NCBI GenBank assembly: GCA_964187785.1
Contig: OZ076409.1
Location: forward strand, 15,378,001 to 15,442,000
Direction of reading: 5' to 3'
DNA length: 64,000 bases
From: Amphiscolops sp. MND2022
Lineage: Eukaryota
A program made the position numbers and the translations under genes. Shown piece after piece: positions 3,898 through 52,999 of the stretch (the stretch's first letter is position 1; every line of letters starts with the position of its first letter). The notes beneath the pieces were generated by a model. It was not told the DNA's origin and did no database searches. It saw only the letters and a program-made list of their open reading frames with translations.

Positions 3898-4199
3898 TTA
3901 GGCTAAAAGCAACGAGTCAATTTTTGGAGCGCGAGACTCCTATCTGCGGTACGGACTTACCATTACCAGCCAACAACTTGTTTTGAGGAGAAATTCTCAT
4001 GAAAAGACGACGTTTCAAGTTATTGACATCTGATGAAACAAAAATATTCCAGAAAAATTGTGAGAAAGCAAAATTTTGACTCTATTACGAAAATGTATGC
4101 TGAAAAGCATAAATTAGTAAGCTTAAAAATGAAATTCCATGTATTATCAAAAGTCGACTCAGGAGTGTGAAAAACACGTTTTAGGGGTAATTTTGGGCC

Positions 4200-4796: not shown

Positions 4797-4915
4797 AGGC
4801 TACAACACCTGGTGTTCCCAAGCGGTCTCCCATGCAAGTACTAACCAGGCCCTTTGTTGTTTAACTTCGGTGATCGGACGAGAACCGGTGCATTCAACAT
4901 GGTATGGTCGTAGCC
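4797..4915 (-). rRNA. 5S rRNA (variant; box C TTGGATGGG changed to TTGCATGGG)
   Basis: 119-nt GGCTACGACCATACC...GTGTTGTAGCCT followed by a T-run terminator; 2 substitutions versus array consensus. Confidence 0.95.
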
Positions 4916-5007: not shown

Positions 5008-5142
5008 AAGTTAGTGCAGACTAGCTTGTTCCTTGTTCAAAAATTGGGCAGCAGACCACTTTCGCAGTCTGTTTTCAAATAAAACTTATCAATAGGGTTG
5101 GAATACTTACCTATTTAATAAGTTTATCACAACAATTAGGCT
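5008..5142 (-). ncRNA. Spliced-leader (SL) RNA gene, uninterrupted
   Basis: Exon (A)GCCTAATTGTTGTGATAAACTTATTAAATAG|GTAAGT. AAACTTAT..ATAGG pairs with CCTATTGATAAGTTT across the donor. CAGAC-TGCGAAAGTG-GTCTG stem, Sm site AATTTTTG, 3' stem AAGCTAGT/ACTAACTT. Ends approximate. Confidence 0.85.
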
Positions 5143-5867: not shown

Positions 5868-6026
5868 TTAAATAAATATATAAATCAAAATCAATTTACA
5901 CTACAGCTACAAAAATTTAGCATTGTTACAAAATATTCATGGCTGACTTTTCAAAGATAATAGAAACACAGATGAAAAGAATAAAAGAATAGCATCATGA
6001 ATTTGTGTGAAGTTATCGGTCGAGAT

Positions 6027-9000
6027 TTAGACTTGGCATCGAGTTTTGATATATTTCAAGTATTTTCCTTCATATTCCGACCACGATGAAAAAAGTAATG
6101 CTACAACTAGTTTCTGGGCTAGTGGATTTTCGTTTAGCCATATGTCTTGCCAATTTCGTAGGTTAAGAAAAGTTTTGATGTTTTGGATTTTTTCACAATC
6201 AAAGAAAAGATGTTGCCAACTTTCAAATTCGGTTTCACATGCAAAAAAAAGGGGATGAGGTACCAAGTTTTGAAGCCATTTTTCCTGTTTATCAGGGTAT
6301 GCATTCATTATAAAATGATAGATATAGTTTTTGTCAAAGGACTGGAGTTGTGTATTGTTCCATAACTTTTTGACAAACAAATCCAGTATGTTTGTGTCAA
6401 TATTTTGCGAAAAGGCTGTTTTGGCAATTCTTGGCAAGCAAGATATGTTTATCAGGCTAGAATTTAGGAAATCATACACTTCTTTTGATTTCGTGTCAAC
6501 ATTTATGGTGAGATTTTGAAAAAAATAATGGAGAATGATCGTATTATCTGTATTTATAGTCATCTCAATTTTGTCTTTTTTCAGGTCACTTGTTATCATT
6601 TTTAACCATTTCGATTTTTGAAAGTTTTTTTCAGGTTCGTTTGCTAATGAAACTTTAACATTCATTATCTTAGCCACTGATACTGCTTTGTTCAAGTTTT
6701 TTTAAACCTATTCCACCATCTCTTCTTTCCGTGTGTATTACGTCTTGACTAACATTATGTTTTTTCTGTAGCCAGAAATTGTCTACCATTTTGGAATTCA
6801 ATTTTTTTCAAGAACGTCTTTAGTTGTGTAAAATGTCTTAGCTTGTATATTATTTTGGATAGAACGAAAGTTTCGATGTTGATCGCTCTGGCTCTAAATG
6901 AAGTGTTTTTATTAATGAATTTTGGAATTTGGTTGATTGCTTTCCATATTTCATTCCTAGTTTCTGGGTCCATAGTTCCTTTAGTGGTCGTTTTAACTCC
7001 GAGAATTTTCACACAGTCTACTACTTTGATCTGTCTGTTCTCATCAGTATTTGGGATTGTTCTCGTTTTTGCTAAGATCTCTGATTTGTCATAATTGATT
7101 GCTAGTCCAGTTAAAGCTTGGAATTTTTTTGGAAGATTTTTAGTAACCGATTAATTGAAGTAGCTTTCATTGCTACTGTTATATCATCCGCGTATGCAAT
7201 GACTTTTTGTTTTTGACTACTTAATATTTTCTTCGAGTTTTGAATTCTCTCTAAGAGTGGCTCCATTACCAGGTTGAAAAGTAGCGCAGATAAAGGGCAG
7301 CCTTGTCTGACACCTCTAGTGATCTCCAAAATTTCGGAAAATTCAGAATTGAAATCAATAATTGATTTGGTGTCTGCATAGAGAGTTTTTATTAGAGACA
7401 TTGTGCTATTATCAATTGCCAAGTATTCAAGCATTTTCAACATGAAATCTCTGTCTACACAGTCAAAAGCTTTTGAAAAATCAAGGGCACATAATAAATC
7501 ATCTTTTTTCAATTCTATTGAGTATTGTCTAATTTTGGTTAAAGCCGAGTGAATATCTCTTTTTGGGAAATGAGCGTATTGATGATGATTTTCGATTATT
7601 GCGTTGCAGATTGGTTTTATTCTGAACGCTAGAATATGTGAAAGAATTTTTTGATCGGAGTTAATTAAGCTTAATGGTCGAAGGTCCGACACTTTCTTTA
7701 CCATTAAAAATTTTTTGGGAATAAGTTTCATAATAGCCATATTGAAAGATGGAGGAGCCACTCCTGTTTTGATTATATCGTTGAAAACATCTGTCAAAAG
7801 CGGAACAAACAGATCAGAGTACTTTTTATAGAGGTTAGAAGTTAAGCCATCAGGACCAGGAGCACTATCTTTGTTGAGTTTGTTAATTGCTCTTTCAACT
7901 TCAAATTCCGTAATTTCTTCATGTTCTAAGTCATTTGTTTCATGAACTTGACATAATTTTTCTCGTTTTTCCTTAAAAAACATTTCCAAGAATTTATTTT
8001 GTTGTTCATCTGTTTCTTGGTTTTTTGGTCGAGCTTCAAATTGTTTAGTATAGAAGCCTACTAATTCATCAAAGATTTTGCTCTTGTCATTGATTATTGA
8101 TCCATTTGAAGCCTCAAATTCTTGTATTTTGAATTCAGGTCACCTTCATTGGCCTCCATGAAAAGGTTTTTAATTTTTTTATCTCTAATTTTGCCTCAGA
8201 CATTTTTATCTCTGAAAGCGCAGATGTTTTTGAGTCTAAAATTTCCAAAAGTTCAGATTTTTTATGAGAATCATTGGTATTTTTCATATCTGATTCTAGT
8301 TTTTCAATTTCACGTACAAGGTTTTCTTCCGTTATTACTTTTTTACGTTTTTCTTTGATACATAAGAGTCTCAGGGAGTCTCTTAGCCTAGCTTTGAAAA
8401 CATCGTATCTTTTTGACAAACTTATCGTGTTTTCCAATGCAGTCAAGCTCGTTTTCAATATTTCAGTAACAGCCTGTTTATTTTCTAGGACTGAGTCATT
8501 AAGCTTGAAGTATCCATTTTTGAAATTATTTTGGTTCCGATACAAGTGCAAAAGTTTGTGGTCGGAAAAAGGCAAAAACAGAACTGAGAGCTCTAGGTTT
8601 TGTTCATTAGAATTTAAAAAGCAATAGTCAATTCTACTATGTTTTTTAAAACGCCTATCATAATGCGTGGTACTGACTGGGATCTGCTTTTTTCCAATAT
8701 CTTTTAAAACATATTCATTTAGTTTGGTAATGATAGCTCGATGCCTCAATACTCTGATATCGTTTGACTTGACTTTTTCATTCAAATTTTCATAGTCTTC
8801 AAAGTCAATGGCATTGAAGTCACCAGCAATGATGAGATTTTGGTGGTATTCAAGATTCAATTCTTCAATGGAAGCAATGAAGTTTTCTGCTAAAGTGTCT
8901 TTTGGGTTAATATAAGTATTTACTATAGTGGTAGTTTGGTTTTCAACCGTTAGAGTGACAGTGAGACACGTATTAGTTTTTCCAATAACCTCGTATACAC

Positions 9001-9274
9001 AGTGTTCAGGAAATATTGTCATGAGACCACCTGAGTTCATTATTGCTGGTACAGTTTCATACTTCAATTTGTTAAGTTTTAAAATTTTTTCATGTTCTTT
9101 GCGTAATTTCCAAAGTTTAGTTTCTTGTATTAAAATGCAGAACGTTTTCGTCTTCCGATTTTTCTCAATTTTTTCTAAAAGCTGAATTAACTTAGTTGAA
9201 TTAGCTAGACCGCGGACGTTCACACAAAAAATTTCAATCAAATCAGCCATCAGTTTGTAAAGAGGTAGTTCCAT
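6027..9274 (-). pseudogene. ORF2: APE endonuclease + reverse transcriptase + C-terminal Cys/His motif, broken by at least 3 frameshifts
   Basis: APE motifs NVRGL, IQET, GDFN, SRIDY, SDH; RT motifs PGPDG, RPLSL, DFSKAFD, GVRQGCPLS, YADD; C-terminal ESWQHLFFDC. Confidence 0.93.
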
Positions 9275-10510
9275 TGACTTCTTTCGAAAGTTTTTCTATT
9301 TGTTTTTGCAGTTTTTTGGCTCTTTTTATTTGTTTCTTCCTGTTTGAGGAGTTTGTACTGGATTCTTCTCCAATTTCACTTCTATTTCGTTTCGTGGTTC
9401 TTGTAGTTACTTTTGTCCAATCATTAGCAGCCTCGTCTGGTTCCATATTTGTCGTTATTGTGTCATTCGTAGCTTCGGTTTGCTCGTCTTCTTCAGTATC
9501 AGAGCTAGTTTCTGAGTCTGTATGGGTGCTGCTATTTTCATCCTCCACAATTCGTAGTTTCCCTTCCTCTCTTTCCATTTCTGCAGGGTGATCAGTCTCT
9601 GGTTTTTCGATAGGTTTTGGTTTTCGGTTGATTCTACACCAGTCTTCATGGTGTCCTCGGTAGCGTTGTCTCTTCTCTTCTTTGCATTTTTGGCATTCAT
9701 GCAGAGCAGGAATGCTAGCATAGATTGGAAGCTCACACCAGTAAGCAATGTCTGAGGAAGCTCGTGCCTTTGACCAGTTTTCCAATTGTTCTTGCTCTTC
9801 GTGGTTGTTAATTTTAACCGCAATTTTAGCTTTGCCTGTGTAGAACGTGCCGAGTTCAGTTCTCTGACGTTCCCGTTGAATTTCCCCTAGTTCTGCAAAG
9901 TCAGGGACTTGCAGTAGTTCCATTAACTGCTTGTCGTCACAGAGTGCTGGCAAGTTGTTTATTCTGACGTCATGTACTTTTGGGAAGGCAGATGTCCTGA
10001 CTATCCAGGTGTCTTCAGCTGTCGGAAAAACAGTTCGATTCATAATTTTGAGTCCATTTAGCTTAATGCGAGCAACGTCTTCTTCCGCTTCGATTGGGGC
10101 GATTACCAGTAGGACCTGTAGCTTCTTTTCTCCCAGTTTCATGTTAGTTCGTGAAATTGTAATCATTTCCCGGTAACGAGGATTGAACACGCTGAGGATG
10201 TCTTTATAAGCTATTGACATTGCCGTTTCGAGAGCAGCGCCATCGGTGAAAAGTTCCTTCGTTAGTGGAGGTATAATTTTCATTTTCAGCACTTGACGAC
10301 ATGTCTGAATTCGTAAGCAATGTTGGTAACAGCTTTACTGAAGTTCATTGTTTGCGCGGTTTTTTCGGTAATTTTAGTTTCGTCAGGCTGGCGGCTAGCG
10401 AGTTTTTCCTGAGGGTTTTCCGTTGAATTCTCGTTTTCGTTTACTATCGCACAATCAGGTAAAGAGTTTATGTAATCTTGTTGTTTCTGTCTGGCAGCTT
10501 TTTCCGACAT
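9243..10510 (-). pseudogene. ORF1 (RRM-like region + CxxC..H..C zinc knuckle), one frameshift near 10290; overlaps ORF2 start by 32 bp
   Basis: VRINNLP, FYTGKAKI, CQKC..GHHEDWC motifs; position upstream of ORF2; first ATG at 10510 (MSEKAARQ). Confidence 0.8.
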
Positions 10511-10814
10511 TTTTCGTAACAATTGGTAATCGATTCAAAGTAACTGAGGTAAAAAGGAAAATAGGGAGGATTGAAGTAACTTTCGCTAGTTTCAAGAGCC
10601 TCAGAAGGGGAGAAAAAGTAAGACGAGTCTAGGGGGAAACGAACGTTCCAAGGCTTTCCACGGCCGAGGAAACGACGTTAAGACTGGTAGCGTTTTGAGG
10701 ACTGCTAACAGCCACCCGCCAAGGAAGCTTCAACTTGGTCCTCAGGCCTTTGGTCCCCATTTTGACCCCTTTTGCAAAACTGTCACCGAAGTTGAACCAC
10801 ATTTCTGACAAAAA

Positions 10815-11718: not shown

Positions 11719-11837
11719 AGGCTACAACACCCGGTGTTCCCAAGCGGTCTCCCATCCAAGTACTAACCAGGCCCTATGTTGTTTAACTTCGGTGATCGGA
11801 CGAGAACCGGTGCATTCAACGTGGTACGGTCGTAGCC
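11719..11837 (-). rRNA. 5S rRNA (3 substitutions, T5 terminator)
   Basis: 119-nt match with variants cacccgg and caacgtggtacgg. Confidence 0.93.
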
Positions 11838-11929
11838 GATCATTGTAAAATCAATAGCTTTATATGCTTAACAACAAAATTACGTACAATGATACGAAAA
11901 TTTTCTCGGTCAAAATACGCGTAACTTTT

Positions 11930-12065
11930 AAGTTAGTGCAGACTAGCTTGTTCCTTGTTCAAAAAATTGGGCAGCAGACCACTTTCGCAGTCTGCTTTCA
12001 AATAAAACTTATCAATAGGGTTGGAATACTTACCTATTTAATAAGTTTATCACAACAATTAGGCT
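11930..12065 (-). ncRNA. SL RNA gene, uninterrupted (Sm site with one extra T)
   Basis: Same architecture as other copies. Confidence 0.85.
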
Positions 12066-12622
12066 AAATGCAAAGAGTCAATTTTTGGAGCGCGAGACTC
12101 CTATCTGCGGTACGGACTTACCATTACCAGCCAACAACTTGTTTTGAGGAGAAATTCTCATGAAAAGACGACGTTTCAAGTTATTGACATCTGATGAAAC
12201 AAAAATATTCCAGAAAAATTGTGAGAAAGCAAAATTTTGACTCTATTACGAAAATGTATGCTGAAAAGCATAAATTAGTAAGCTTAAAAATGAAATTCCA
12301 TGTATTATCAAAAGTCGACTCAGGAGTGTGAGAAACACGTTTTAGGGGTAATTTTGGGCCCTCTTTCCAATGCCGTTGTCAGTTTTTTGCTATCTGTTAA
12401 TTTTGACCCCTTTTGCAAAACTGTCACCGAAGTTAAACCACATTTTGTGAAAATAGTAAAAATGACATAACTCAATGAAAATTCAAGTGATGGCGGCGAA
12501 AATTTCAGCATGGGGGTTTTTTGGACGCTCTTTCCAATGCCGTTGTCCGTTTTTTGCTATCTGTTCATTTTGACCCCTTTTGCAAAACTGTCACCGAAGT
12601 TAAACCACATTTCTGACAAAAA

Positions 12623-12833: not shown

Positions 12834-12968
12834 AAGTTAGTGCAGACTAGCTTGTTCCTTGTTCAAAAATTGGGCAGCAGACCACTTTCGCAGTCTGCTT
12901 TCAAATAAAACTTATCAATAGGGTTGGAATACTTACCTATTTAATAAGTTTATCACAACAATTAGGCT
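12834..12968 (-). ncRNA. SL RNA gene, uninterrupted (17-kb insertion ~240 bp upstream)
   Basis: Same architecture as other copies. Confidence 0.85.
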
Positions 12969-31886: not shown

Positions 31887-33867
31887 TTTAAAGAATTTAT
31901 TGAAAACTGAGAATTAACAAGTAAAAAGTAATGAAGTCTAAGGTATATGTATAAAATGAGTATATGAGTAACTGAAGTGTTGAAAAAGCTGAAGTATGTA
32001 GATGAAGATGCTTGGTTATGGCATTTTTGAGAAAGCGCCAAAATGGGAATGTTTTTTTTTGGTATGAAGTTAGTATAATGTAGTTTGGAGAATGTATGAA
32101 AAAAAGATGTTTGCTCCTGGAAGGAGTTTGTTCTCAAAACCCGTTTTTTGCATACAGGTTGCCAACAACTAGTGCTCGAAAAGAATTGGGAATTGGGTTG
32201 ATTGATGATGGTATTGTAGAGATTTAGAACTTTAAAATTCCAGTCAAAAAGGTCCGAAATTTTTCAGTTTAGTTTTTGTTTTCATTGTATAAGTTTTCAA
32301 CTGCAGTGAAAACTTGTACAATTTTATTCTCCAGATTAATAGTGTAAATTTGGTGGTTTGTAGCATCATAGAATGGATCAAACTTCCGGATCAATGAGTA
32401 AAATTCAAAATGAGAAGTTAAAATAGTGTTAGAGTCAGAATGTTTCCAGTTTGATTCAGATAAAAGATCTTTGAGTTTTTCTTTCTTCAGTGGTTGTACG
32501 AGTGAAAAGGTCCTTTGAATTTTCTTTTCCTTGTCTAGTGTATTGATGTAGCCAGAAGTTTGTTGGGTTTTGATCACATGTTCTTTTATAGGAGGTATTT
32601 CGTTGAAAATAGTTTCGGGTGCCAGTATTTTGTTTTGTTTCTTTTCCAAAAAGAATGGGTATTCATGATATCCATGCTTTGCCGTTGACTGTTGGTCATC
32701 TGCTTGATTTCGGGCAAGGTCTGTTGAGGATTCCCATTCAGTTGAGCGATGCATTAGTTTAGGTTTTTGCATAGGAATGGTATCTTTCTTTGAGTTGTTA
32801 ATGCATGGTTGTTCAGTTTCTGCCACGTTGTTATTGCATTCGGTTTCAGTACCATCATCGGTCTGCTTTGGCGCCTTTGAGATTGGTTCAGCATCATCTG
32901 AATCTGACAGTTCAGGTTCATTAGACATTGGCTCTGTTTCTGCAGTTTCCATAACGTAGTCAGTTGTTAACTTCTGGTTCTGAGATTCACTGTTTTTCTG
33001 TATTTGCTGTTCGTCTGATAGTTGTTTTGGGCATCTTGATTGTTGATGAGCACTGGGAAGGTTCTCATTGACGCATAAAGAGCATTCGAGGAGTGGGATA
33101 CAGCAACATTTGAAAAAAATGCCACTGGAACTAAACATTTTGTCATATGCATTATTGGCCCAGTTTTGTAGTAAACTTTCCTCATTCTCATTGTCAATTA
33201 AAACTGTAATTCTTGCCTCTCCTGTATAAAAAAGGCTGCTATCAGGAAGTCGTCGTTGTTGATGAAAAATTTTGCTACTAAATTTGAAGTTTTGAAGACC
33301 ACAGCTACTCAAAATATCCTCATCCGTCAGAAAGTGTGGTAGGTTTCGGAAAGATATTGGTAATCTTTTTGGATAGACATTGTTGTTCGGGTTGGAATAA
33401 TTGACAGAATAAGGCCGTATTTTCCGATTGCGAAGAGTAATGCCATCGTGAATAAGAGAGGAAGCTGCATTTTCAAGTTTGTAAGGAATGATCACAGTAA
33501 TACACTTCAAATTGCCTTTGTTGCGTAAAATTGTAGTTTTGAAGATGGTAATTTCATTGGAGTTAAGTCGGTTTTTGACGGCCATAACAGCTTCCACAAA
33601 CATTGAATCCAGTAATTTGCTGTTTTTGAACATTTCAGATGTCAGTGGTAAGGCAAAGTTGATAATAATTGGTAATTTGTCCATATTTGAGTTCGATTTC
33701 GACAAGGAAATAACTGCATTTTTGTAACAATTTTGCTCAACATTTTCATTATGATGTTGATCAAGCTCACTCGTGTTCAAATTAGTCATTACTTTTGCAA
33801 CTTTTGCTGCAAAATTTGCAAGATGGCGCTGTGCAAACAAAGTTTGCAGGCTGACAGAGTAACGCCG
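31887..33867 (-). mobile_element. ORF1-only non-LTR element A, copy 1
   Basis: 18-bp TSD TATCACAACAATTAGGCT at 31869-31886 and 33868-33885; 3' end AATAAATTCTTTAAA; single ORF. Confidence 0.9.
32269..33789 (-). CDS. ORF1-like protein A1 (506 aa from first ATG): RRM-like/zinc knuckle, acidic linker, unassigned C-terminal domain
   Basis: ISFRNLPHFL, FYTGEARI, IPLLECSLC..H....C align by eye with the L1/Tx1 ORF1 at 9243-10292. Confidence 0.85.
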   Translation of the reverse strand: MTNLNTSELDQHHNENVEQNCYKNAVISLSKSNSNMDKLPIIINFALPLTSEMFKNSKLLDSMFVEAVMAVKNRLNSNEITIFKTTILRNKGNLKCITVIIPYKLENAASSLIHDGITLRNRKIRPYSVNYSNPNNNVYPKRLPISFRNLPHFLTDEDILSSCGLQNFKFSSKIFHQQRRLPDSSLFYTGEARITVLIDNENEESLLQNWANNAYDKMFSSSGIFFKCCCIPLLECSLCVNENLPSAHQQSRCPKQLSDEQQIQKNSESQNQKLTTDYVMETAETEPMSNEPELSDSDDAEPISKAPKQTDDGTETECNNNVAETEQPCINNSKKDTIPMQKPKLMHRSTEWESSTDLARNQADDQQSTAKHGYHEYPFFLEKKQNKILAPETIFNEIPPIKEHVIKTQQTSGYINTLDKEKKIQRTFSLVQPLKKEKLKDLLSESNWKHSDSNTILTSHFEFYSLIRKFDPFYDATNHQIYTINLENKIVQVFTAVENLYNENKN

Positions 33868-34788: not shown

Positions 34789-36769
34789 TTTAAAGAATTT
34801 ATTGAAAACTGAGAATTTACAAGTAAAAAGTAATGAAGTCTAAGGTATAGGTATAAAAAGAGTATATGAGTAACTGAAGTGTTGAAAAAGCTGAAGTATG
34901 TAGATGAAGATGCTTGGTTATGGCATTTTTGAGAAAGCGCCAAAATGGGAATGTTTTTTTTAGGTATGAAGTTAGTATAATGTAGTTTGGAGAATGTATG
35001 AAAAAAAGATGTTTGCTCCTGGAAGGAGTTTGTTTTCAAAACCCGTTTTTTGCATACAGGTTGCGAACAACTAGTGCTCGAAAAGAATTGGGAATTGGGT
35101 TGATTGATGATGGTATTGTACAGATTTAGAACTTTAAAGTTCCAGTCAAAAAGGTCCGAAATTTTTCAGTTTAGTTTTTGTTTTCATTGTATAAGTTTTC
35201 AACTGCAGTGGAAACTTGTACAATTTTATTCTCCAGATTAATAGTGTAAATTTGGTGGTTTGTAGCATCATAGAATGGATCAAACTTCCGGATCAATGAG
35301 TAAAATTCAAAATGAGAAGTTAAAATAGTGTTAGAGTCAGAATGATTCCAGTTTGATTCAGATAAAAGATCTTCGAGTTTTTCTTTCTTCAGTGGTTGTA
35401 CGAGTGAAAAGGTCCTTTGAATTTTCTTTTCCTTGTCTAGTGTATTGATGTAGCCAGAAGTTTGTTGGGTTTTGATCACATGTTCTTTTATAGGAGGTAT
35501 TTCGTTGAAAATAGTTTCGGGTGCCAGTATTTTGTTTTGTTTCTTTTCCAAAAAGAATGGGTATTCATGATATCCATGCTTTGCCGTTGACTGTTGGTCA
35601 TCTGCTTGATTTCGGGCAAGGTCTGTTGAGGATTTCCATTCAGTTGAGCGATGCATTATATTAGGTTTTTGCATAGGAATGGTATCTTTCTTTGAGTTGT
35701 TAATGCATGGTTGTTCAGTTTCTGCCACGTTGTTATTGCATTCGGTTTCAGTACCATCATCGGTCTGCTTTGGCGCCTTTGAGATTGGTTCAGCATCATC
35801 TGAATCTGACAGTTCAGGTTCATTAGACATTGGCTCTGTTTCTGCAGTTTCCATAACGTAGTCAGTTGTTAACTTCTGGTTCTGAGATTCACTGTTTTTC
35901 TGTATTTGCTGTTCGTCTGATAGTTGTTTTGGGCATCTTGATTGTTGATGAGCACTGGGAAGGTTCTCAATGACGCATAAAGAGCATTCGAGGAGTGGGA
36001 TACAGCAACATTTGAAAAAAATGCCACTGGAACTAAACATTTTGTCATATGCATTATTGGCCCAGTTTTGTAGTAAACTTTCCTCATTCTCATTGTCAAT
36101 TAAAACTGTAATTCTTGCCTCTCCTGTATAAAAAAGGCTGCTATCAGGAAGTCGTCGTTGTTGATGAAAAATTTTGCTACTAAATTTGAAGTTTTGAAGA
36201 CCACAGCTACTCAAAATATCCTCATCCGTCAGAAAGTGTGGTAGGTTTCGGAAAGATATTGGTAATCTTTTTGGATAGACATTGTTGTTCGGGTTGGAAT
36301 AATTGACAGAATAAGGCCGTATTTTCCGATTGCGAAGAGTAATGCCCTCGTGAATAAGAGAGGAAGCTGCATTTTCAAGTTTGTAAGGAATGATCACAGT
36401 AATACACTTCAAATTGCCTTTGTTGCGTAAAATTGTAGTTTTGAAGATGGTAATTTCATTGGAGTTAAGTCGGTTTTTGACGGCCATAACAGCTTCCACA
36501 AACATTGAATCCAGTAATTTGCTGTTGTTGAACATTTCAGATGTCAGTGGTAAGGCAAAGTTGATAATAATTGGTAATTTGTCCATATTTGAGTTCGATT
36601 TCGACAAGGAAATAACTGCATTTTTGTAACAATTTTGCTCAACATTTTCATTATGATGTTGATCAAGCTCACTCGTGTTCAAATTAGTCATTACTTTTGC
36701 AACTTTTGCTGCAAAATTTGCAAGATGGCGCTGTGCAAACAAAGTTTGCAGGCTGACAGAGTAACGCCG
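34789..36769 (-). mobile_element. Element A, copy 2
   Basis: Same termini and TSD. Confidence 0.9.
35171..36691 (-). CDS. ORF1-like protein A2
   Basis: Intact; few aa differences from A1. Confidence 0.85.
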   Translation of the reverse strand: MTNLNTSELDQHHNENVEQNCYKNAVISLSKSNSNMDKLPIIINFALPLTSEMFNNSKLLDSMFVEAVMAVKNRLNSNEITIFKTTILRNKGNLKCITVIIPYKLENAASSLIHEGITLRNRKIRPYSVNYSNPNNNVYPKRLPISFRNLPHFLTDEDILSSCGLQNFKFSSKIFHQQRRLPDSSLFYTGEARITVLIDNENEESLLQNWANNAYDKMFSSSGIFFKCCCIPLLECSLCVIENLPSAHQQSRCPKQLSDEQQIQKNSESQNQKLTTDYVMETAETEPMSNEPELSDSDDAEPISKAPKQTDDGTETECNNNVAETEQPCINNSKKDTIPMQKPNIMHRSTEWKSSTDLARNQADDQQSTAKHGYHEYPFFLEKKQNKILAPETIFNEIPPIKEHVIKTQQTSGYINTLDKEKKIQRTFSLVQPLKKEKLEDLLSESNWNHSDSNTILTSHFEFYSLIRKFDPFYDATNHQIYTINLENKIVQVSTAVENLYNENKN

Positions 36770-37691: not shown

Positions 37692-39672
37692 TTTAAAGAA
37701 TTTATTGAAAACTGAGAATTTACAAGTAAAAAGTAATGAAGTCTAAGGTATATGTATAAAATGAGTATATGAGTAACTGAAGTGTTGAAAAAGCTGAAGT
37801 ATGTAGATGAAGATGCTTGGTTATGGCATTTTTGAGAAAGCGCCAAAATGGGAATGTTTTTTTTTGGTATGAAGTTAGTATAATGAAGTTTGGAGAATGT
37901 ATGAAAAAAAGAAGTTTGCTCCTGGAAGGAGTTTGTTCTCAAAACCCGTTTTTTGCATACCGGTTACGAACAACTAGTGCTCGAAAAGAATTGGGAATTG
38001 GGTTGATTGATGATGGTATTGTAGAGATTTAGAACTTTAAAGTTCCAGTCAAAAAGGTCCGAAATTTTTCAGTTTAGTTTTTGTTTTCATTGTATAGGTT
38101 TTCAACTGCAGTGAAAACTTGTACAATTTTATTCTCCAGATTAATAGTGTAAATTTGGTGGTTTGTAGCATCATAGAATGGATCAAACTTCCGGATCAAT
38201 GAGTAAAATTCAAAATGAGAAGTTAAAATAGTGTTAGAGTCAGAATGTTTCCAGTTTGATTCAGATAAAAGATCTTCGAGTTTTTCTTTCTTCAGTGGTT
38301 GTACGAGTGAAAAGGTCCTTTCAATTTTCTTTTCCTTGTCTAGTGTATTGATGTAGCCAGAAGTTTGTTGGGTTTTGATCACATGTTCTTTTATAGGAGG
38401 TATTTCGTTGAAAATAGTTTCGGGTGCCAGTATTTTGTTTTGTTTCTTTTCCAAAAAGAATGGGTATTCATGATATCCATGCTTTGCCGTTGACTGTTGG
38501 TCATCTGCTTGATTTCGGGCAAGGTCTGTTGAGGATTTCCATTCAGTTGAGCGATGCATTATATTAGGTTTTTGCATAGGAATGGTATCTTTCTTTGAGT
38601 TGTTAATGCATGGTTGTTCAGTTTCTGCCACGTTGTTATTGCATTCGGTTTCAGTACCATCATCGGTCTGCTTTGGCGCCTTTGAGATTGGTTCAGCATC
38701 ATCTGAATCTGACAGTTCAGGTTCATTAGACATTGGCTCTGTTTCTGCAGTTTCCATAACGTAGTCAGTTGTTAACTTCTGGTTCTGAGATTCACTGTTT
38801 TTCTGTATTTGCTGTTCGTCTGATAGTTGTTTTGGGCATCTTGATTGTTGATGAGCACTGGGAAGGTTCTCAATGACGCATAAAGAGCATTCGAGGAGTG
38901 GGATACAGCAACATTTGAAAAAAATGCCACTGGAACTAAACATTTTGTCATATGCATTATTGGCCCAGTTTTGTAGTAAACTTTCCTCATTCTCATTGTC
39001 AATTAAAACTGTAATTCTTGCCTCTCCTGTATAAAAAAGGCTGCTATCAGGAAGTCGTCGTTGTTGATGAAAAATTTTGCTACTAAATTTGAAGTTTTGA
39101 AGACCACAGCTACTCAAAATATCCTCATCCGTCAGAAAGTGTGGTAGGTTTCGGAAAGATATTGGTAATCTTTTTGGATAGACATTGTTGTTCGGGTTGG
39201 AATAATTGACAGAATAAGGCCGTATTTTCCGATTGCGAAGAGTAATGCCCTCGTGAATAAGAGAGGAAGCTGCATTTTCAAGTTTGTAAGGAATGATCAC
39301 AGTAATACACTTCAAATTGCCTTTGTTGCGTAAAATTGTAGTTTTGAAGATGGTAATTTCATTGGAGTTAAGTCGGTTTTTGACGGCCATAACAGCTTCC
39401 ACAAACAATGAATCCAGTAATTTGCTGTTGTTGAACATTTCAGATGTCAGTGGTAAGGCAAAGTTGATAATAATTGGTAATTTGTCCATATTTGAGTTCG
39501 ATTTCGACAAGGAAATAACTGCATTTTTGTAACAATTTTGCTCAACATTTTCATTATGATGTTGATCAAGCTCACTCGTGTTCAAATTAGTCATTACTTT
39601 TGCAACTTTTGCTGCAAAATTTGCAAGATGGCGCTGTGCAAACAAAGTTTGCAGGCTGACAGAGTAACGCCG
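37692..39672 (-). mobile_element. Element A, copy 3
   Basis: Same termini and TSD. Confidence 0.9.
38074..39594 (-). CDS. ORF1-like protein A3
   Basis: Intact ORF. Confidence 0.85.
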   Translation of the reverse strand: MTNLNTSELDQHHNENVEQNCYKNAVISLSKSNSNMDKLPIIINFALPLTSEMFNNSKLLDSLFVEAVMAVKNRLNSNEITIFKTTILRNKGNLKCITVIIPYKLENAASSLIHEGITLRNRKIRPYSVNYSNPNNNVYPKRLPISFRNLPHFLTDEDILSSCGLQNFKFSSKIFHQQRRLPDSSLFYTGEARITVLIDNENEESLLQNWANNAYDKMFSSSGIFFKCCCIPLLECSLCVIENLPSAHQQSRCPKQLSDEQQIQKNSESQNQKLTTDYVMETAETEPMSNEPELSDSDDAEPISKAPKQTDDGTETECNNNVAETEQPCINNSKKDTIPMQKPNIMHRSTEWKSSTDLARNQADDQQSTAKHGYHEYPFFLEKKQNKILAPETIFNEIPPIKEHVIKTQQTSGYINTLDKEKKIERTFSLVQPLKKEKLEDLLSESNWKHSDSNTILTSHFEFYSLIRKFDPFYDATNHQIYTINLENKIVQVFTAVENLYNENKN

Positions 39673-40594: not shown

Positions 40595-42575
40595 TTTAAA
40601 GAATTTATTGAAAACTGAGAATTTACAAGTAAAAAGTAATGAAGTCTAAGGTATATGTATAAAATGAGTATATGAGTAACTGAAGTGTTGAAAAAGCTGA
40701 AGTATGTAGATGAAGATGCTTGGTTATGGCATTTTTGAGAAAGCGCCAAAATGGGAATGTTTTTTTTTGGTATGAAGTTAGTATAATGAAGTTTGGAGAA
40801 TGTATGAAAAAAAGAAGTTTGCTCCTGGAAGGAGTTTGTTCTCAAAACCCGTTTTTTGCATACCGGTTACGAACAACTAGTGCTCGAAAAGAATTGGGAA
40901 TTGGGTTGATTGATGATGGTATTGTAGAGATTTAGAACTTTAAAGTTCCAGTCAAAAAGGTCCGAAATTTTTCAGTTTAGTTTTTGTTTTCATTGTATAG
41001 GTTTTCAACTGCAGTGAAAACTTGTACAATTTTATTCTCCAGATTAATAGTGTAAATTTGGTGGTTTGTAGCATCATAGAATGGATCAAACTTCCGGATC
41101 AATGAGTAAAATTCAAAATGAGAAGTTAAAATAGTGTTAGAGTCAGAATGTTTCCAGTTTGATTCAGATAAAAGATCTTCGAGTTTTTCTTTCTTCAGTG
41201 GTTGTACGAGTGAAAAGGTCCTTTCAATTTTCTTTTCCTTGTCTAGTGTATTGATGTAGCCAGAAGTTTGTTGGGTTTTGATCACATGTTCTTTTATAGG
41301 AGGTATTTCGTTGAAAATAGTTTCGGGTGCCAGTATTTTGTTTTGTTTCTTTTCCAAAAAGAATGGGTATTCATGATATCCATGCTTTGCCGTTGACTGT
41401 TGGTCATCTGCTTGATTTCGGGCAAGGTCTGTTGAGGATTCCCATTCAGTTGAGCGATGTATTAGTTTAGGTTTTTGCATAGGAATGGTATCTTTCTTTG
41501 AGTTGTTAATGCATGGTTGTTCAGTTTCTGCCACGTTGTTATTGCATTCGGTTTCAGTACCATCATCGGTCTGCTTTGGCGCCTTTGAGATTGGTTCAGC
41601 ATCATCTGAATCTGACAGTTCAGGTTCATTAGACATTGGCTCTGTTTCTGCAGTTTCCATAACGTAGTCAGTTGTTAACTTCTGGTTCTGAGATTCACTG
41701 TTTTTCTGTATTTGCTGTTCGTCTGATAGTTGTTTTGGGCATCTTGATTGTTGATAAGCACTGGGAAGGTTCTCATTGACGCATAAAGAGCATTCGAGAA
41801 GTGGGATACAGCAACATTTGAAAAAAATGCCACTGGAACTAAACATTTTGTCATATGCATTATTGGCCCAGTTTTGTAGTAAGCTTTTCTCATTCTCATT
41901 GTCAATTAAAACTATAATTTTTGCCTCTCCTGTATAAAAAAGGCTGCTATCAGGAAGTCGTCGTTGTTGATGAAAAATTTTGCTACTAAATTTGAAGTTT
42001 TGAAGACCACAGCTACTCAAAATATCCTCATCCGTCAGAAAGTGTGGTAGGTTTCGGAAAGATATTGGTAATCTTTTTGGATAGACATTGTTGTTCGGGT
42101 TGGAATAATTGACAGAATAAGGCCGTATTTTCCGATTGCGAAGAGTAATGCCCTCGTGAATAAGAGAGGAAGCTGCATTTTCAAGTTTGTAAGGAATGAT
42201 CACAGTAATACACTTCAAATTGCCTTTGTTGCGTAAAATTGTAGTTTTGAAGATGGTAATTTCATTGGAGATAAGTCGGTTTTTGACGGCCATAACAGCT
42301 TCCACAAACATTGAATCCAGTAATTTGCTGTTTTTGAACATTTCAGATGTCAGTGGTAAGGCAAAGTTGATAATAATTGGTAATTTGTCCATATTTGAGT
42401 TCGATTTCGACAAGGAAATAACTGCATTTTTGTAACAATTTTGCTCAACATTTTCATTATGATGTTGATCAAGCTCACTCGTGTTCAAATTAGTCATTAC
42501 TTTTGCAACTTTTGCTGCAAAATTTGCAAGATGGCGCTGTGCAAACAAAGTTTGCAGGCTGACAGAGTAACGCCG
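40595..42575 (-). mobile_element. Element A, copy 4
   Basis: Same termini and TSD. Confidence 0.9.
40977..42497 (-). CDS. ORF1-like protein A4 (zinc-knuckle His changed to Tyr)
   Basis: Intact ORF; PSAYQQSRC. Confidence 0.85.
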   Translation of the reverse strand: MTNLNTSELDQHHNENVEQNCYKNAVISLSKSNSNMDKLPIIINFALPLTSEMFKNSKLLDSMFVEAVMAVKNRLISNEITIFKTTILRNKGNLKCITVIIPYKLENAASSLIHEGITLRNRKIRPYSVNYSNPNNNVYPKRLPISFRNLPHFLTDEDILSSCGLQNFKFSSKIFHQQRRLPDSSLFYTGEAKIIVLIDNENEKSLLQNWANNAYDKMFSSSGIFFKCCCIPLLECSLCVNENLPSAYQQSRCPKQLSDEQQIQKNSESQNQKLTTDYVMETAETEPMSNEPELSDSDDAEPISKAPKQTDDGTETECNNNVAETEQPCINNSKKDTIPMQKPKLIHRSTEWESSTDLARNQADDQQSTAKHGYHEYPFFLEKKQNKILAPETIFNEIPPIKEHVIKTQQTSGYINTLDKEKKIERTFSLVQPLKKEKLEDLLSESNWKHSDSNTILTSHFEFYSLIRKFDPFYDATNHQIYTINLENKIVQVFTAVENLYNENKN

Positions 42576-43497: not shown

Positions 43498-45479
43498 TTT
43501 AAAGAATTTATTGAAAACTGAGAATTTACAAGTAAAAAGTAATGAAGTCTAAGGTATATGTATAAAATGAGTATATGAGTAACTGAAGTGTTGAAAGAGC
43601 TGAAGTATGTAGATGAAGATGCTTGGTTATGGCATTTTTGAGAAAGCGCCAAAATGGGAATTGTTTTTTTTTGGTATGAAGTTAGTATAATGTAGTTTGG
43701 AGAATGTATGAAAAAAAGATGTTTGCTCCTGGAAGGAGTTTGTTCTCAAAACCCGTTTTTTGCATACAGGTTGCGAACAACTAGTGCTCGAAAAGAATTG
43801 GGAATTGGGTTGATTGATGGTGGTATTGTAGAGATTTAGAACTTTAAAGTTCCAGTCAAAAAGGTCCGAAGTTTTTCAGTTTAGTTTTTGTTTTCATTGT
43901 ATAAGTTTTCAACTGCAGTGAAAACTTGTACAATTTTATTCTCCAGATTAATAGTGTAAATTTGGTGGTTTGTAGCATCATAGAATGGATCAAACTTCCG
44001 GATCAATGAGTAAAATTCAAAATGAGAAGTTAAAATAGTGTTAGAGTCAGAATGTTTCCAGTTTGATTCAGATAAAAGATCTTCGAGTTTTTCTTTCTTC
44101 AGTGGTTGTACGAGTGAAAAGGTTCTTTGAATTCTCTTTTCCTTGTCTAGTGTATTGATGTAGCCAGAAGTTTGTTGGGTTTTGATCACATGTTCTTTTA
44201 TAGGAGGTATTTCGTTGAAAATAGTTTCGGGTGCCAGTATTTTGTTTTGTTTCTTTTCCAAAAAGAATGGGTATTCATGATATCCATGCTTTGCCGTTGA
44301 CTGTTGGTCATCTGCTTGGTTTCGGGCAAGGTCTGTTGAGGATTCCCATTCAGTTGAGCGATGCATTAGTTTAGGTTTTTGCATAGGAATGGTATCTTTC
44401 TTTGAGTTGTTAATGCATGGTTGTTCAGTTTCTGCCACGTTGTTATTGCATTCGGTTTCAGTACCATCATCGGTCTGCTTTGGCGCCTTTGAGATTGGTT
44501 CAGCATCATCTGAATCTGACAGTTCAGGTTCATTAGACATTGGCTCTGTTTCTGCAGTTTCCATAACGTAGTCAGTTGTTAACTTCTGGTTCTGAGATTC
44601 ACTGTTTTTCTGTATTTGCTGTTCGTCTGATAGTTGTTTTGGGCATCTTGATTGTTGATGAGCACTGGGAAGGTTCTCATTGACGCATAAAGAGCATTCG
44701 AGGAGTGGGATACAGCAACATTTGAAAAAAATGCCACTGGAACTAAACATTTTGTCATATGCATTATTGGCCCAGTTTTGTAGTAAACTTTCCTCATTCT
44801 CATTGTCAATTAAAACTGTAATTCTTGCCTCTCCTGTATAAAAAAGGCTGCTATCAGGAAGTCGTCGTTGTTGATGAAAAATTTTGCTACTAAATTTGAA
44901 GTTTTGAAGACCACAGCTACTCAAAATATCCTCATCCGTCAGAATGTGTGGTAGGTTTCGGAAAGATATTGGTAATCTTTTTGGATAGACATTGTTGTTC
45001 GGGTTGGAATAATTGACAGAATAAGGCCGTATTTTCCGATTGCGAAGAGTAATGCCCTCGTGAATAAGAGAGGAAGCTGCATTTTCAAGTTTGTAAGGAA
45101 TGATCACAGTAATACACTTCAAATTGCCTTTGTTGCGTAAAATTGTAGTTTTGAAGATGGTAATTTCATTGGAGTTAAGTCGGTTTTTGACGGCCATAAC
45201 AGCTTCCACAAACATTGAATCCAGTAATTTGCTGTTGTTGAACATTTCAGATGTCAGTGGTAAGGCAAAGTTGATAATAATTGGTAATTTGTCCATATTT
45301 GAGTTCGATTTCGACAAGGAAATAACTGCATTTTTGTAACAATTTTGCTCAACATTTTCATTATGATGTTGATCAAGCTCACTCGTGTTCAAATTAGTCA
45401 TTACTTTTGCAACTTTTGCTGCAAATTTTGCAAGATGGCGCTGTGCAAACAAAGTTTGCAGGCTGACAGAGTAACGCCG
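43498..45479 (-). mobile_element. Element A, copy 5 (tandem trimer)
   Basis: Separated from A6 only by the 18-bp TSD 45480-45497. Confidence 0.9.
43881..45401 (-). CDS. ORF1-like protein A5
   Basis: Intact ORF. Confidence 0.85.
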   Translation of the reverse strand: MTNLNTSELDQHHNENVEQNCYKNAVISLSKSNSNMDKLPIIINFALPLTSEMFNNSKLLDSMFVEAVMAVKNRLNSNEITIFKTTILRNKGNLKCITVIIPYKLENAASSLIHEGITLRNRKIRPYSVNYSNPNNNVYPKRLPISFRNLPHILTDEDILSSCGLQNFKFSSKIFHQQRRLPDSSLFYTGEARITVLIDNENEESLLQNWANNAYDKMFSSSGIFFKCCCIPLLECSLCVNENLPSAHQQSRCPKQLSDEQQIQKNSESQNQKLTTDYVMETAETEPMSNEPELSDSDDAEPISKAPKQTDDGTETECNNNVAETEQPCINNSKKDTIPMQKPKLMHRSTEWESSTDLARNQADDQQSTAKHGYHEYPFFLEKKQNKILAPETIFNEIPPIKEHVIKTQQTSGYINTLDKEKRIQRTFSLVQPLKKEKLEDLLSESNWKHSDSNTILTSHFEFYSLIRKFDPFYDATNHQIYTINLENKIVQVFTAVENLYNENKN

Positions 45480-45497
45480 TATCACAACAATTAGGCT

Positions 45498-47477
45498 TTT
45501 AAAGAATTTATTGAAAACTGAGAATTTACAAGTAAAAAGTAATGAAGTCTAAGGTATATGTATAAAATGAGTATATGAGTAACTGAAGTGTTGAAAAAGC
45601 TGAAGTATGTAGATGAAGATGCTTGGTTATGGCATTTTTGAGAAAGCGCCAAAATGGGAATGTTTTTTTTGGTATGAAGTTAGTATAATGTAGTTTGGAG
45701 AATGTATGAAAAAAAGAAGTTTGCTCCTGGAAGGAGTTTGTTCTCAAAACCCGTTTTTTGCATACCGGTTACGAACAACTAGTGCTCGAAAAGAATTGGG
45801 AATTGGGTTGATTGATGATGGTATTGTAGAGATTTAGAACTTTAAAGTTCCAGTCAAAAAGGTCCGAAATTTTTCAGTTTAGTTTTTGTTTTCATTGTAT
45901 AAGTTTTCAACTGCAGTGAAAACTTGTACAATTTTATTCTCCAGATTAATAGTGTAAATTTGGTGGTTTGTAGCATCATAGAATGGATCAAACTTCCGGA
46001 TCAATGAGTAAAATTCAAAATGAGAAGTTAAAATAGTGTTAGAGTCAGAATGTTTCCAGTTTGATTCAGATAAAAGATCTTCGAGTTTTTCTTTCTTCAG
46101 TGGTTGTACGAGTGAAAAGGTCCTTTGAATTTTCTTTTCCTTGTCTAGTGTATTGATGTAGCCAGAAGTTTGTTGGGTTTTGATCACATGTTCTTTTATA
46201 GGAGGTATTTCGTTGAAAATAGTTTCGGGTGCCAGTATTTTGTTTTGTTTCTTTTCCAAAAAGAATGGGTATTCATGATATCCATGCTTTGCCGTTGACT
46301 GTTGGTCATCTGCTTGATTTCGGGCAAGGTCTGTTGAGGATTTCCATTCAGTTGAGCGATGCATTAGTTTAGGTTTTTGCATAGGAATGGTATCTTTCTT
46401 TGAGTTGTTAATGCATGGTTGTTCAGTTTCTGCCACGTTGTTATTGCATTCGGTTTCAGTACCATCATCGGTCTGCTTTGGCGCCTTTGAGATTGGTTCA
46501 GCATCATCTGAATCTGACAGTTCAGGTTCATTAGACATTGGCTCTGTTTCTGCAGTTTCCATAACGTAGTCAGTTGTTAACTTCTGGTTCTGAGATTCAC
46601 TGTTTTTCTGTATTTGCTGTTCGTCTGATAGTTGTTTTGGGCATCTTGATTGTTGATGAGCACTGGGAAGGTTCTCATTGACGCATAAAGAGCATTCGAG
46701 GAGTGGGATACAGCAACATTTGAAAAAAATGCCACTGGAACTAAACATTTTGTCATATGCATTATTGGCCCAGTTTTGTAGTAAACTTTCCTCATTCTCA
46801 TTGTCAATTAAAACTGTAATTCTTGCCTCTCCTGTATGAAAAAGGCTGCTATCAGGAAGTCGTCGTTGTTGATGAAAAATTTTGCTACTAAATTTGAAGT
46901 TTTGAAGACCACAGCTACTCAAAATATCCTCATCCGTCAGAAAGTGTGGTAGGTTTCGGAAAGATATTGGTAATCTTTTTGGATAGACATTGTTGTTCGG
47001 GTTGGAATAATTGACAGAATAAGGCCGTATTTTCCGATTGCGAAGAGTAATGCCCTCGTGAATAAGAGAGGAAGCTGCATTTTCAAGTTTGTAAGGAATG
47101 ATCACAGTAATACACTTCAAATTGCCTTTGTTGCGTAAAATTGTAGTTTTGAAGATGGTAATTTCATTGGAGTTAAGTCGGTTTTTGACGGCCATAACAG
47201 CTTCCACAAACATTGAATCCAGTAATTTGCTGTTGTTGAACATTTCAGATGTCAGTGGTAAGGCAAAGTTGATAATAATTGGTAATTTGTCCATATTTGA
47301 GTTCGATTTCGACAAGGAAATAACTGCATTTTTGTAACAATTTTGCTCAACATTTTCATTATGATGTTGATCAAGCTCACTCGTGTTCAAATTAGTCATT
47401 ACTTTTGCAACTTTTGCTGCAAATTTTGCAAGATGGCGCTGTGCAAACAAAGTTTGCAGGCTGACAGAGTAACGCCG
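45498..47477 (-). mobile_element. Element A, copy 6 (tandem trimer)
   Basis: TSDs 45480-45497 and 47478-47495. Confidence 0.9.
45879..47399 (-). CDS. ORF1-like protein A6
   Basis: Intact ORF. Confidence 0.85.
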   Translation of the reverse strand: MTNLNTSELDQHHNENVEQNCYKNAVISLSKSNSNMDKLPIIINFALPLTSEMFNNSKLLDSMFVEAVMAVKNRLNSNEITIFKTTILRNKGNLKCITVIIPYKLENAASSLIHEGITLRNRKIRPYSVNYSNPNNNVYPKRLPISFRNLPHFLTDEDILSSCGLQNFKFSSKIFHQQRRLPDSSLFHTGEARITVLIDNENEESLLQNWANNAYDKMFSSSGIFFKCCCIPLLECSLCVNENLPSAHQQSRCPKQLSDEQQIQKNSESQNQKLTTDYVMETAETEPMSNEPELSDSDDAEPISKAPKQTDDGTETECNNNVAETEQPCINNSKKDTIPMQKPKLMHRSTEWKSSTDLARNQADDQQSTAKHGYHEYPFFLEKKQNKILAPETIFNEIPPIKEHVIKTQQTSGYINTLDKEKKIQRTFSLVQPLKKEKLEDLLSESNWKHSDSNTILTSHFEFYSLIRKFDPFYDATNHQIYTINLENKIVQVFTAVENLYNENKN

Positions 47478-47495
47478 TATCACAACAATTAGGCT

Positions 47496-49475
47496 TTTAA
47501 AGAATTTATTGAAAACTGAGAATTTACAAGTAAAAAGTAATGAAGTCTAAGGTATATGTATAAAATGAGTATATGAGTAACTGAAGTGTTGAAAAAGCTG
47601 AAGTATGTAGATGAAGATGCTTGGTTATGGCATTTTTGAGAAAGCGCCAAAATGGGAATGTTTTTTTTGGTATGAAGTTAGTATAATGTAGTTTGGAGAA
47701 TGTATGAAAAAAAGAAGTTTGCTCCTGGAAGGAGTTTGTTCTCAAAACCCGTTTTTTGCATACCGGTTACGAACAACTAGTGCTCGAAAAGAATTGGGAA
47801 TTGGGTTGATTGATGATGGTATTGTAGAGATTTAGAACTTTAAAGTTCCAGTCAAAAAGGTCCGAAATTTTTCAGTTTAGTTTTTGTTTTCATTGTATAA
47901 GTTTTCAACTGCAGTGAAAACTTGTACAATTTTATTCTCCAGATTAATAGTGTAAATTTGGTGGTTTGTAGCATCATAGAATGGATCAAACTTCCGGATC
48001 AATGAGTAAAATTCAAAATGAGAAGTTAAAATAGTGTTAGAGTCAGAATGTTTCCAGTTTGATTCAGATAAAAGATCTTCGAGTTTTTCTTTCTTCAGTG
48101 GTTGTACGAGTGAAAAGGTCCTTTGAATTTTCTTTTCCTTGTCTAGTGTATTGATGTAGCCAGAAGTTTGTTGGGTTTTGATCACATGTTCTTTTATAGG
48201 AGGTATTTCGTTGAAAATAGTTTCGGGTGCCAGTATTTTGTTTTGTTTCTTTTCCAAAAAGAATGGGTATTCATGATATCCATGCTTTGCCGTTGACTGT
48301 TGGTCATCTGCTTGATTTCGGGCAAGGTCTGTTGAGGATTTCCATTCAGTTGAGCGATGCATTAGTTTAGGTTTTTGCATAGGAATGGTATCTTTCTTTG
48401 AGTTGTTAATGCATGGTTGTTCAGTTTCTGCCACGTTGTTATTGCATTCGGTTTCAGTACCATCATCGGTCTGCTTTGGCGCCTTTGAGATTGGTTCAGC
48501 ATCATCTGAATCTGACAGTTCAGGTTCATTAGACATTGGCTCTGTTTCTGCAGTTTCCATAACGTAGTCAGTTGTTAACTTCTGGTTCTGAGATTCACTG
48601 TTTTTCTGTATTTGCTGTTCGTCTGATAGTTGTTTTGGGCATCTTGATTGTTGATGAGCACTGGGAAGGTTCTCATTGACGCATAAAGAGCATTCGAGGA
48701 GTGGGATACAGCAACATTTGAAAAAAATGCCACTGGAACTAAACATTTTGTCATATGCATTATTGGCCCAGTTTTGTAGTAAACTTTCCTCATTCTCATT
48801 GTCAATTAAAACTGTAATTCTTGCCTCTCCTGTATGAAAAAGGCTGCTATCAGGAAGTCGTCGTTGTTGATGAAAAATTTTGCTACTAAATTTGAAGTTT
48901 TGAAGACCACAGCTACTCAAAATATCCTCATCCGTCAGAAAGTGTGGTAGGTTTCGGAAAGATATTGGTAATCTTTTTGGATAGACATTGTTGTTCGGGT
49001 TGGAATAATTGACAGAATAAGGCCGTATTTTCCGATTGCGAAGAGTAATGCCCTCGTGAATAAGAGAGGAAGCTGCATTTTCAAGTTTGTAAGGAATGAT
49101 CACAGTAATACACTTCAAATTGCCTTTGTTGCGTAAAATTGTAGTTTTGAAGATGGTAATTTCATTGGAGTTAAGTCGGTTTTTGACGGCCATAACAGCT
49201 TCCACAAACATTGAATCCAGTAATTTGCTGTTTTTGAACATTTCAGATGTCAGTGGTAAGGCAAAGTTGATAATAATTGGTAATTTGTCCATATTTGAGT
49301 TCGATTTCGACAAGGAAATAACTGCATTTTTGTAACAATTTTGCTCAACATTTTCATTATGATGTTGATCAAGCTCACTCGTGTTCAAATTAGTCATTAC
49401 TTTTGCAACTTTTGCTGCAAAATTTGCAAGATGGAGCTGTGCAAACAAAGTTTGCAGGCTGACAGAGTAACGCCG
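47496..49475 (-). mobile_element. Element A, copy 7 (tandem trimer)
   Basis: TSDs 47478-47495 and 49476-49493. Confidence 0.9.
47877..49397 (-). CDS. ORF1-like protein A7
   Basis: Intact ORF. Confidence 0.85.
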   Translation of the reverse strand: MTNLNTSELDQHHNENVEQNCYKNAVISLSKSNSNMDKLPIIINFALPLTSEMFKNSKLLDSMFVEAVMAVKNRLNSNEITIFKTTILRNKGNLKCITVIIPYKLENAASSLIHEGITLRNRKIRPYSVNYSNPNNNVYPKRLPISFRNLPHFLTDEDILSSCGLQNFKFSSKIFHQQRRLPDSSLFHTGEARITVLIDNENEESLLQNWANNAYDKMFSSSGIFFKCCCIPLLECSLCVNENLPSAHQQSRCPKQLSDEQQIQKNSESQNQKLTTDYVMETAETEPMSNEPELSDSDDAEPISKAPKQTDDGTETECNNNVAETEQPCINNSKKDTIPMQKPKLMHRSTEWKSSTDLARNQADDQQSTAKHGYHEYPFFLEKKQNKILAPETIFNEIPPIKEHVIKTQQTSGYINTLDKEKKIQRTFSLVQPLKKEKLEDLLSESNWKHSDSNTILTSHFEFYSLIRKFDPFYDATNHQIYTINLENKIVQVFTAVENLYNENKN

Positions 49476-52988: not shown

Positions 52989-52999
52989 TATCACAACAA

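Follow-up and report, generated by a model that had tools for sequence, protein, structure and literature searches.

Spliced-leader RNA genes linked to 5S rRNA genes in the acoel Amphiscolops sp., and retrotransposons of probable L1/Tx1 type inserted in them

Results

Tandem SL-5S repeats

The window, a 64-kb stretch (64,000 nt) of contig OZ076409.1 from the acoel Amphiscolops sp. MND2022, holds an array in which a spliced-leader (SL) RNA gene is paired with a 5S rRNA gene; ranges written with two dots refer to its minus strand. In the copy at 5008..5142 the SL exon, counted as 32 nt from an A, occupies 5111..5142 (its start may instead lie at 5148, 6 nt upstream) and is followed by a GTAAGT splice donor at 5105..5110, a boundary that coincides with the leader end on mRNA-like contigs and on dispersed genomic copies. 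The 5S rRNA gene paired with it was placed by Rfam at 4797..4915, with 11 more in the window. A 24-nt pattern of leader plus donor matched 12 times, always on the minus strand, and never in 100 shuffles; with the 12 Rfam 5S genes this bears out the twelve SL repeats described in an earlier sequence-only reading, which had also correctly placed the SL gene 93 bp upstream of 5S (5008 minus 4915) on the same strand. The distance from donor to 5S start was 195-196 nt in all 12 copies, and one SL-5S repeat unit measures 904 bp (11719..12622), a spacing that recurs in the long C1 array. Across the surveyed arrays, 277 of 296 donors had a 5S start within 400 nt. Genome-wide the 22-nt leader core occurred 1,948 times, on 1,206 occasions with GTAAGT, and reversed controls gave none. 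At a locus from a second organism 5S also lies downstream of SL, with a donor-to-5S distance of 176 nt.

The window copies are not equivalent. Five of the 12 are intact with native upstream DNA (first A at 5142, 11160, 12065, 12968 and 30982, minus strand), and one is broken within the exon at 5867. Others lie behind the tail of an inserted element (first A at 31886, 34788, 37691, 40594, 43497 and 50398, minus strand), the copy at 50398 having T in place of the exon's final G. Rfam, at the gathering score and at E up to 10, returned no match to SL1, SL2 or any other SL family; weak matches to SNORD19B and group II were rejected as chance-level, and ARAGORN found no tRNA within the 64-kb window.

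Several further features of the window were recorded. A 17-kb spacer insert at 13208-30319 contains long inverted repeats (arms of 2.6, 3.4 and 2.0 kb, 96-99% identity); it is foldback-like, and Pfam finds nothing in its frames. In a 167-bp spacer repeat directly downstream of 5S (4191-4786), 15 nt of the 5S gene recur in inverted orientation. Positions 1-3606 and 53167-64000 are tandem arrays with 446-bp and ~165-bp periods and tRNA-like box motifs, without an ARAGORN tRNA. A GC hairpin followed by CTAG at 3860-3898, which we take to resemble a Helitron 3' end, adjoins a truncated SL start. At 52989-53200, and in the C12 array, the leader from about nucleotide 7 on is preceded by another kind of upstream sequence, which contains CCAAT- and TATA-like motifs and may represent an alternative promoter or the end of a further insert.

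Structure and length of the SL RNA

In stem-loop I (5082..5125) the 3' half of the exon and the donor G pair with the intron. The GC-rich stem-loop II (5052..5071), present in the MFE and the centroid structure alike, is near-identical in three loci of other organisms. The GT donor thus sits inside a long stem, as had been proposed (stem I contains the AG/G of the donor), and the proposed GC-rich stem-loop II also holds. The Sm site fared less evenly: the candidate AATTTTTG is present at 5038..5045, and its form AAT5-6G recurs in 264 of 295 array copies, but the U-rich form is not conserved in related organisms, the same position being pyrimidine-rich with no U-run in loci L215 and L188 of other organisms. 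The 3' stem-loop was not upheld. A weak third hairpin at 5008..5027 was confined to the MFE structure of this copy, being absent from the centroids, from the MFE structure of a sister copy and from other organisms, and it probably lies beyond the conserved RNA. A third stem-loop after the Sm site is the nematode and flatworm type and is not known to be required in all SL RNAs.

The 138-nt stretch of the copy at 5008..5142, which has one change at the base of stem II, folded no better than shuffles (z = -0.93). In the sister copy the 103-nt core gave z = -4.29 (none of 200 shuffles as stable) and a 133-nt version z = -2.23. No covarying pairs were found among the loci compared, and in two loci of other organisms stem I is weakened by two changes. 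Three loci of other organisms are almost unchanged over about 100 nt and diverge just past the Sm position. Given this limit of conservation, and since other organisms have no U-run at the Sm position and no third hairpin, the earlier length of ~135 nt is not supported, and the RNA is likely nearer 105-115 nt. It would be transcribed by Pol II, carry a trimethyl cap and bind Sm.

The leader is found at mRNA-like 5' ends

A pattern scan of a metagenome collection yielded 110 leader loci forming 107 distinct sequence clusters, on contigs that may derive from related acoels with the same leader. In 95 of the 110 the leader core was no more than 45 nt from the 5' end of the contig, mostly with diverse ORFs after it; several of these contigs presumably encode ARF, HSP70 and 14-3-3, judged by eye. 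In an oligo-dT RNA run, where missing intron cover carries no weight, the listed contigs cover essentially the exon alone.

Papers are cited here for the sections consulted. In the acoel Symsagittifera roscoffensis a leader encoded by multiple SL RNA genes is trans-spliced to 30.2% of genes (PMC9911081; bioRxiv 2022.08.27.505549). It shares with the window leader 31 identical nucleotides, multiple SL genes and a conserved region of ~100 bp, although the 32-mer in print starts without the 5' A and has a final A that the gene does not encode (PMC9911081). The contigs and the published leader together place the exon on mRNAs, and the window repeat is therefore supported as an SL gene. Trans-splicing with this leader, predicted from the sequence alone, is thereby supported, as is the expectation that the leader would be found joined to diverse mRNA 5' ends; the gene can no longer be called unannotated, since its leader had been published (PMC9911081). 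There is next to no probability that the repeat is inert 5S spacer merely resembling SL RNA. Such a spacer would fit the missing Rfam SL match and the shuffle-level fold of the copy at 5008..5142, but it is already contradicted by the published leader, by the exon-only RNA contigs and by the leader on mRNA-like 5' ends, and it leaves about 100 nt identical in another organism amid diverged flanking spacer. The SL interpretation is correct and was already known, and the SL RNA itself adds little.

The ends of the leader were not equally firm. The 3' end falls exactly at AG/GT, so that the A closing the published 32-mer comes from the mRNAs; A opens 73 of the 110 sequences downstream of the leader on the metagenome contigs. 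The earlier estimate of a ~32-nt exon thus stands at its 3' end, and its 5' end may sit 6 nt upstream, at 5148. A 38-nt leader starting at the G six bases upstream, with reverse transcriptases usually halting six bases short, possibly at modified cap-proximal bases, is a serious possibility that falls somewhat short of an even chance. One contig of the RNA run covers exactly 12937-12974 at a depth of ~600, three mRNA-like contigs begin at the same upstream G, and identity with another organism's gene starts there as well. Contigs are, however, unable to fix RNA ends, and the dispersed copies speak for the shorter form: the A precedes GCC in 16 of 20 dispersed loci (one target duplication leaves out that A), and TT precedes the A in just 46 of 403 dispersed copies, with 0 of 30 of those extending to the G.

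Retroelements interrupt the SL genes of the window

The copies had been described as a unit repeated 12 times. Site-specific retroelements, which that description missed, interrupt half of them. The window contains seven copies of a 1.98-kb family A and two of a family B, all inserted after leader nucleotide 18 and duplicating those 18 bp. Family A copies lie at 31887..33867 (with a 542-aa frame, flanked by the 18-bp duplication of the SL start), 34789..36769, 37692..39672 and 40595..42575, and three more stand head to tail at 43498..49475 with the 18-bp duplication between each. Family B is represented by a 5'-truncated copy with the full 18-bp duplication (50399..51351) and by a full-length copy (51370..52988) whose 5' side keeps 12 of the 18 duplicated bp. 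Each insertion leaves a complete SL sequence downstream, severed from its upstream DNA.

A broken autonomous element of L1/Tx1 type, with ORF1, AP endonuclease and reverse transcriptase (RT), occupies 5868..10757; its 3' end lies within an SL exon and its 5' end in spacer, and its protein is 97-99% identical to an array family. The single frame of families A and B aligns at 27-30% identity with ORF1 of this element (blastp of ORF1-only against autonomous ORF1 protein, E = 1e-18), and Pfam finds nothing in the ORF1 proteins or in nine other window frames. Families A and B thus have one ORF homologous to the ORF1 of their partner, no RT and a target duplication, as HAL1-like elements do. HAL1, a half-L1 of mammalian L1 origin, is likewise non-autonomous and carries ORF1 alone; the acoel elements differ in being SL-targeted, in comprising at least four families and in swapping short 3' tails with autonomous partners (HAL1 as described in the part of PMC5753468 consulted).

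Two target sites in the SL arrays

An RT search of the genome found many divergent families clustered at few loci. Arrays were surveyed in 400 kb on C1 and 200 kb on C12, picked for clustering of RT matches, and in the window (~660 kb together); gaps of at least 60 nt in the repeat were taken as inserts, after five edge gaps, one N gap and C12 reverse-strand gaps above 9 kb had been dropped. Of 108 inserts, 80 have their end at the first A of the leader, 26 at the splice donor and 2 elsewhere, with none in 5S; many are array duplicates (blocks of identical inserts repeat in the C1 array), so 108 is not a count of separate events. Target duplications measured 12-20 bp, usually 18 bp at the leader start, and 5'-truncated copies retain the full duplication, which points to an enzymatic second cut. 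The inserts comprise nine autonomous families encoding AP endonuclease and RT, at least four ORF1-only families and a donor-site element of ~100 nt. The ORF1-only copies have 20-45 nt of 3' tail in common with particular autonomous families.

In these insertion-rich regions 191 of 296 promoter-linked SL starts are uninterrupted. Over the whole genome there are 1,103 uninterrupted SL starts and 127 that are preceded by an A-run, a few of the latter being dispersed; roughly a tenth of SL genes would thus be affected.

The small donor-site element (80-113 nt; L064:1664-1776 and 18 similar copies) is SINE-like; parts of the SL intron occur in it in antisense, and its final bases are the same as those of the autonomous family that targets the donor. 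At locus L108 the sequence after an off-array autonomous copy matches the 5' portion of ORF1-only family A.

The elements resemble L1 and Tx1

Pfam recognised RVT_1 and Exo_endo_phos in ORF2, with zf-RVT weak and below cut-off; the endonuclease went undetected in one of the four ORF2 scanned. The best solved relative of ORF2 was human LINE-1 ORF2p (E = 4e-55), with R2 at E = 6e-21. An ORF1, an ORF2 with AP endonuclease, RT and a weak zinc motif, and a target duplication are features of L1-group non-LTR elements, and a preference for multicopy sequences is a trait of the Tx1 clade. The elements thus appear to be L1-group and Tx1-like, an assignment made with RT trees that contain no named Tx1 reference.

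Nine non-array RT loci were characterised. Two lie in U2 genes, one in a U1 and one in a U5 gene, each with duplications; three lie beside tRNA genes, and two are off-array copies of an SL family. The sister families in U2, U1 and U5 snRNA genes or beside tRNA genes (L117, L118, L119, L120 and L112-L114) fall with the SL families in one clade, with support of 97-99 in quick RT trees, in one of which two of 75 rows had no RT match. The SL, U2 and U5 sites are alike in having a T-run followed by AGCCTAA, GGCTAA or ACTAAA. A single origin for all nine SL families was rejected (p-AU = 0.0007) and one for the eight leader-start families was compatible with the data (p = 0.18), the groups having been defined by target site after the first tree was seen. 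In another organism, two loci carry relatives with 68-69% ORF2 identity at the same leader start.

How the elements may find SL genes

The elements are not strictly specific for SL genes; one family has 5 of its 10 closest copies outside the SL arrays. All ten off-array copies examined end in AGCC (one in AGGCC), and of eight off-array 5' junctions seven carry part of the leader start, the eighth being 5'-truncated. These ends are most simply read as the product of an element RNA that is initiated at the SL promoter and extends into the duplicated target. We hold it very probable that the locus is an SL-5S gene whose leader reaches mRNA-like 5' ends and whose two insertion sites are used by elements of L1/Tx1 type, likely through guided nicking and transcription from the SL promoter. 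The element endonuclease would nick at the boundary of T-run and AGCC, with target-primed reverse transcription following. The element RNA, starting at the SL promoter, would read through into the duplicated AGCC(T), which could aid priming at a matching nick. ORF1-only elements would be mobilised in trans, and targets may switch between the similar T-run-containing sites in SL, U2, U5 and U1 genes.

It could instead be argued that the elements recognise SL genes weakly and prefer a short T-run/AGCC motif, and that they pile up in the arrays through more than 1,000 harmless copies and unequal crossover. The off-array half of that one family sits at AGCC-like sites, as do five examined off-array copies of two other families, and the repeated blocks of identical inserts in the C1 array would also be expected. 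We consider this improbable, since two positions of a 904-bp unit take 106 of 108 inserts, both sites are used by nine families with ORF2 identity as low as 25-66%, and, even with close to half of the copies off-array, an array of ~1 Mb within a 1.07-Gb genome is strongly enriched. Guided insertion at the two SL sites remains the reading adopted below.

The leader also heads dispersed LINEs

The full leader followed by a non-G base was found in 403 dispersed genomic copies without a donor, against none in the reversed control. Among the first 100 listed, 20 were inspected by eye, and 19 of these head LINE-like frames of many families. Two leader-headed LINEs were scanned: both encode RT, and in one an AP endonuclease was found as well, with a weak PHD finger in its ORF1. 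These LINEs may be of CR1/L2 type. Two of three LINE sibling pairs show the junction expected from trans-splicing, with the leader placed directly behind the next AG; in the third pair the shift is at GG. At least nine bases complementary to the leader occur in 6 of 37 LINE heads and in 1 of 95 mRNA-like contigs, related heads not being independent.

At the LINE 5' ends of L007, L136, L137, L001, L132 and L135 a leader complement of 9-19 nt lies directly behind the leader. This complement mimics stem I of the SL RNA, and the donor-targeting family opens with a similar segment.

The leader might also be a fixed DNA head, captured once per family and perhaps serving as an internal promoter, with no trans-splicing in each cycle. 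TTTC continues 18 of 37 distinct genomic heads as against 1 of 95 mRNA-like contigs, so many heads retain acceptor-like sequence behind the leader, and the sibling pair that shifts at a non-AG site points the same way. We regard a fixed head as possible but on balance doubtful, since the other two pairs have the leader exactly after the next AG, the 403 heads, drawn from many families, are exact matches to the present leader, and the leader's own terminal AG could act as acceptor. Renewed trans-splicing of LINE RNAs is therefore retained as the preferred reading.

Discussion

What is added here to the published SL is its linkage to 5S genes and the retrotransposons with an AP endonuclease that target the SL gene, both judged against a literature search whose scope left out Repbase and subscription journals. 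Linkage of SL and 5S genes is known in nematodes and euglenozoans. Linked repeats of this kind are mentioned in PMC10946416 (sections consulted), and the acoel array likewise joins SL and 5S genes within one tandem unit. Acoel SL-5S linkage was not found in the literature searched, and the string '5S r' is absent from the consulted main texts of PMC9911081 and bioRxiv 2022.08.27.505549 and from the PMC supplement text. Within that same search scope neither SL-targeted AP-endonuclease elements nor leader-headed LINEs were found; the word 'leader' does not occur in the consulted part of PMC4494074, and Tx1 and non-LTR go unmentioned in that of bioRxiv 2022.08.27.505549.

Insertion into SL RNA genes is known from the CRE, SLACS and CZAR elements of trypanosomatids and the NeSL elements of nematodes, which have a single ORF with a restriction-like endonuclease after the RT (PMC3636483, PMC4640811). 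Like the acoel elements they are non-LTR elements at fixed SL RNA gene sites, and CRE also makes target duplications. Two ORFs and an N-terminal AP endonuclease set the acoel elements apart from the CRE and NeSL clades. This contrast of an ORF1 plus AP endonuclease-RT with a restriction-like enzyme argues that SL targeting is convergent. Target-specific AP-endonuclease elements belong to Tx1 or R1 (PMC3636483, PMC4640811, PMC4494074). The Tx1 clade includes Keno (U2), Kibi/Koshi and Tx1-Mar, and the targets named for it are U2, U5, 5S, satellites, microsatellites and transposons (PMC4494074, sections consulted). The acoel elements resemble it in their AP endonuclease and preference for multicopy genes, with sisters in U2, U1 and U5.

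A wider account can be given a slightly better than even chance. The acoel AP-endonuclease radiation would be old, and SL genes would have been colonised at least twice, at the leader start and at the donor, by elements sliding among look-alike sites in U1, U2, U5 and SL genes. These elements would use the SL promoter and be parasitised by ORF1-only forms. Unrelated LINEs would depend on trans-splicing for their 5' ends, some with an anti-leader with which the leader would form a stem resembling that of the SL RNA.

Targeting of SL genes seems to have arisen once more, by means of another class of endonuclease, in an animal lineage only distantly related to nematodes and trypanosomes. One clade of related endonucleases with differing targets (two SL sites, U1, U2, U5 and tRNA-adjacent) offers a series for the study of how AP-endonuclease specificity changes. 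The SL-5S pairing provides a simple marker for acoels, and leader-headed LINE copies would be a DNA record of germ-line retrotransposition of trans-spliced RNA that helps to fix the ends of the leader.
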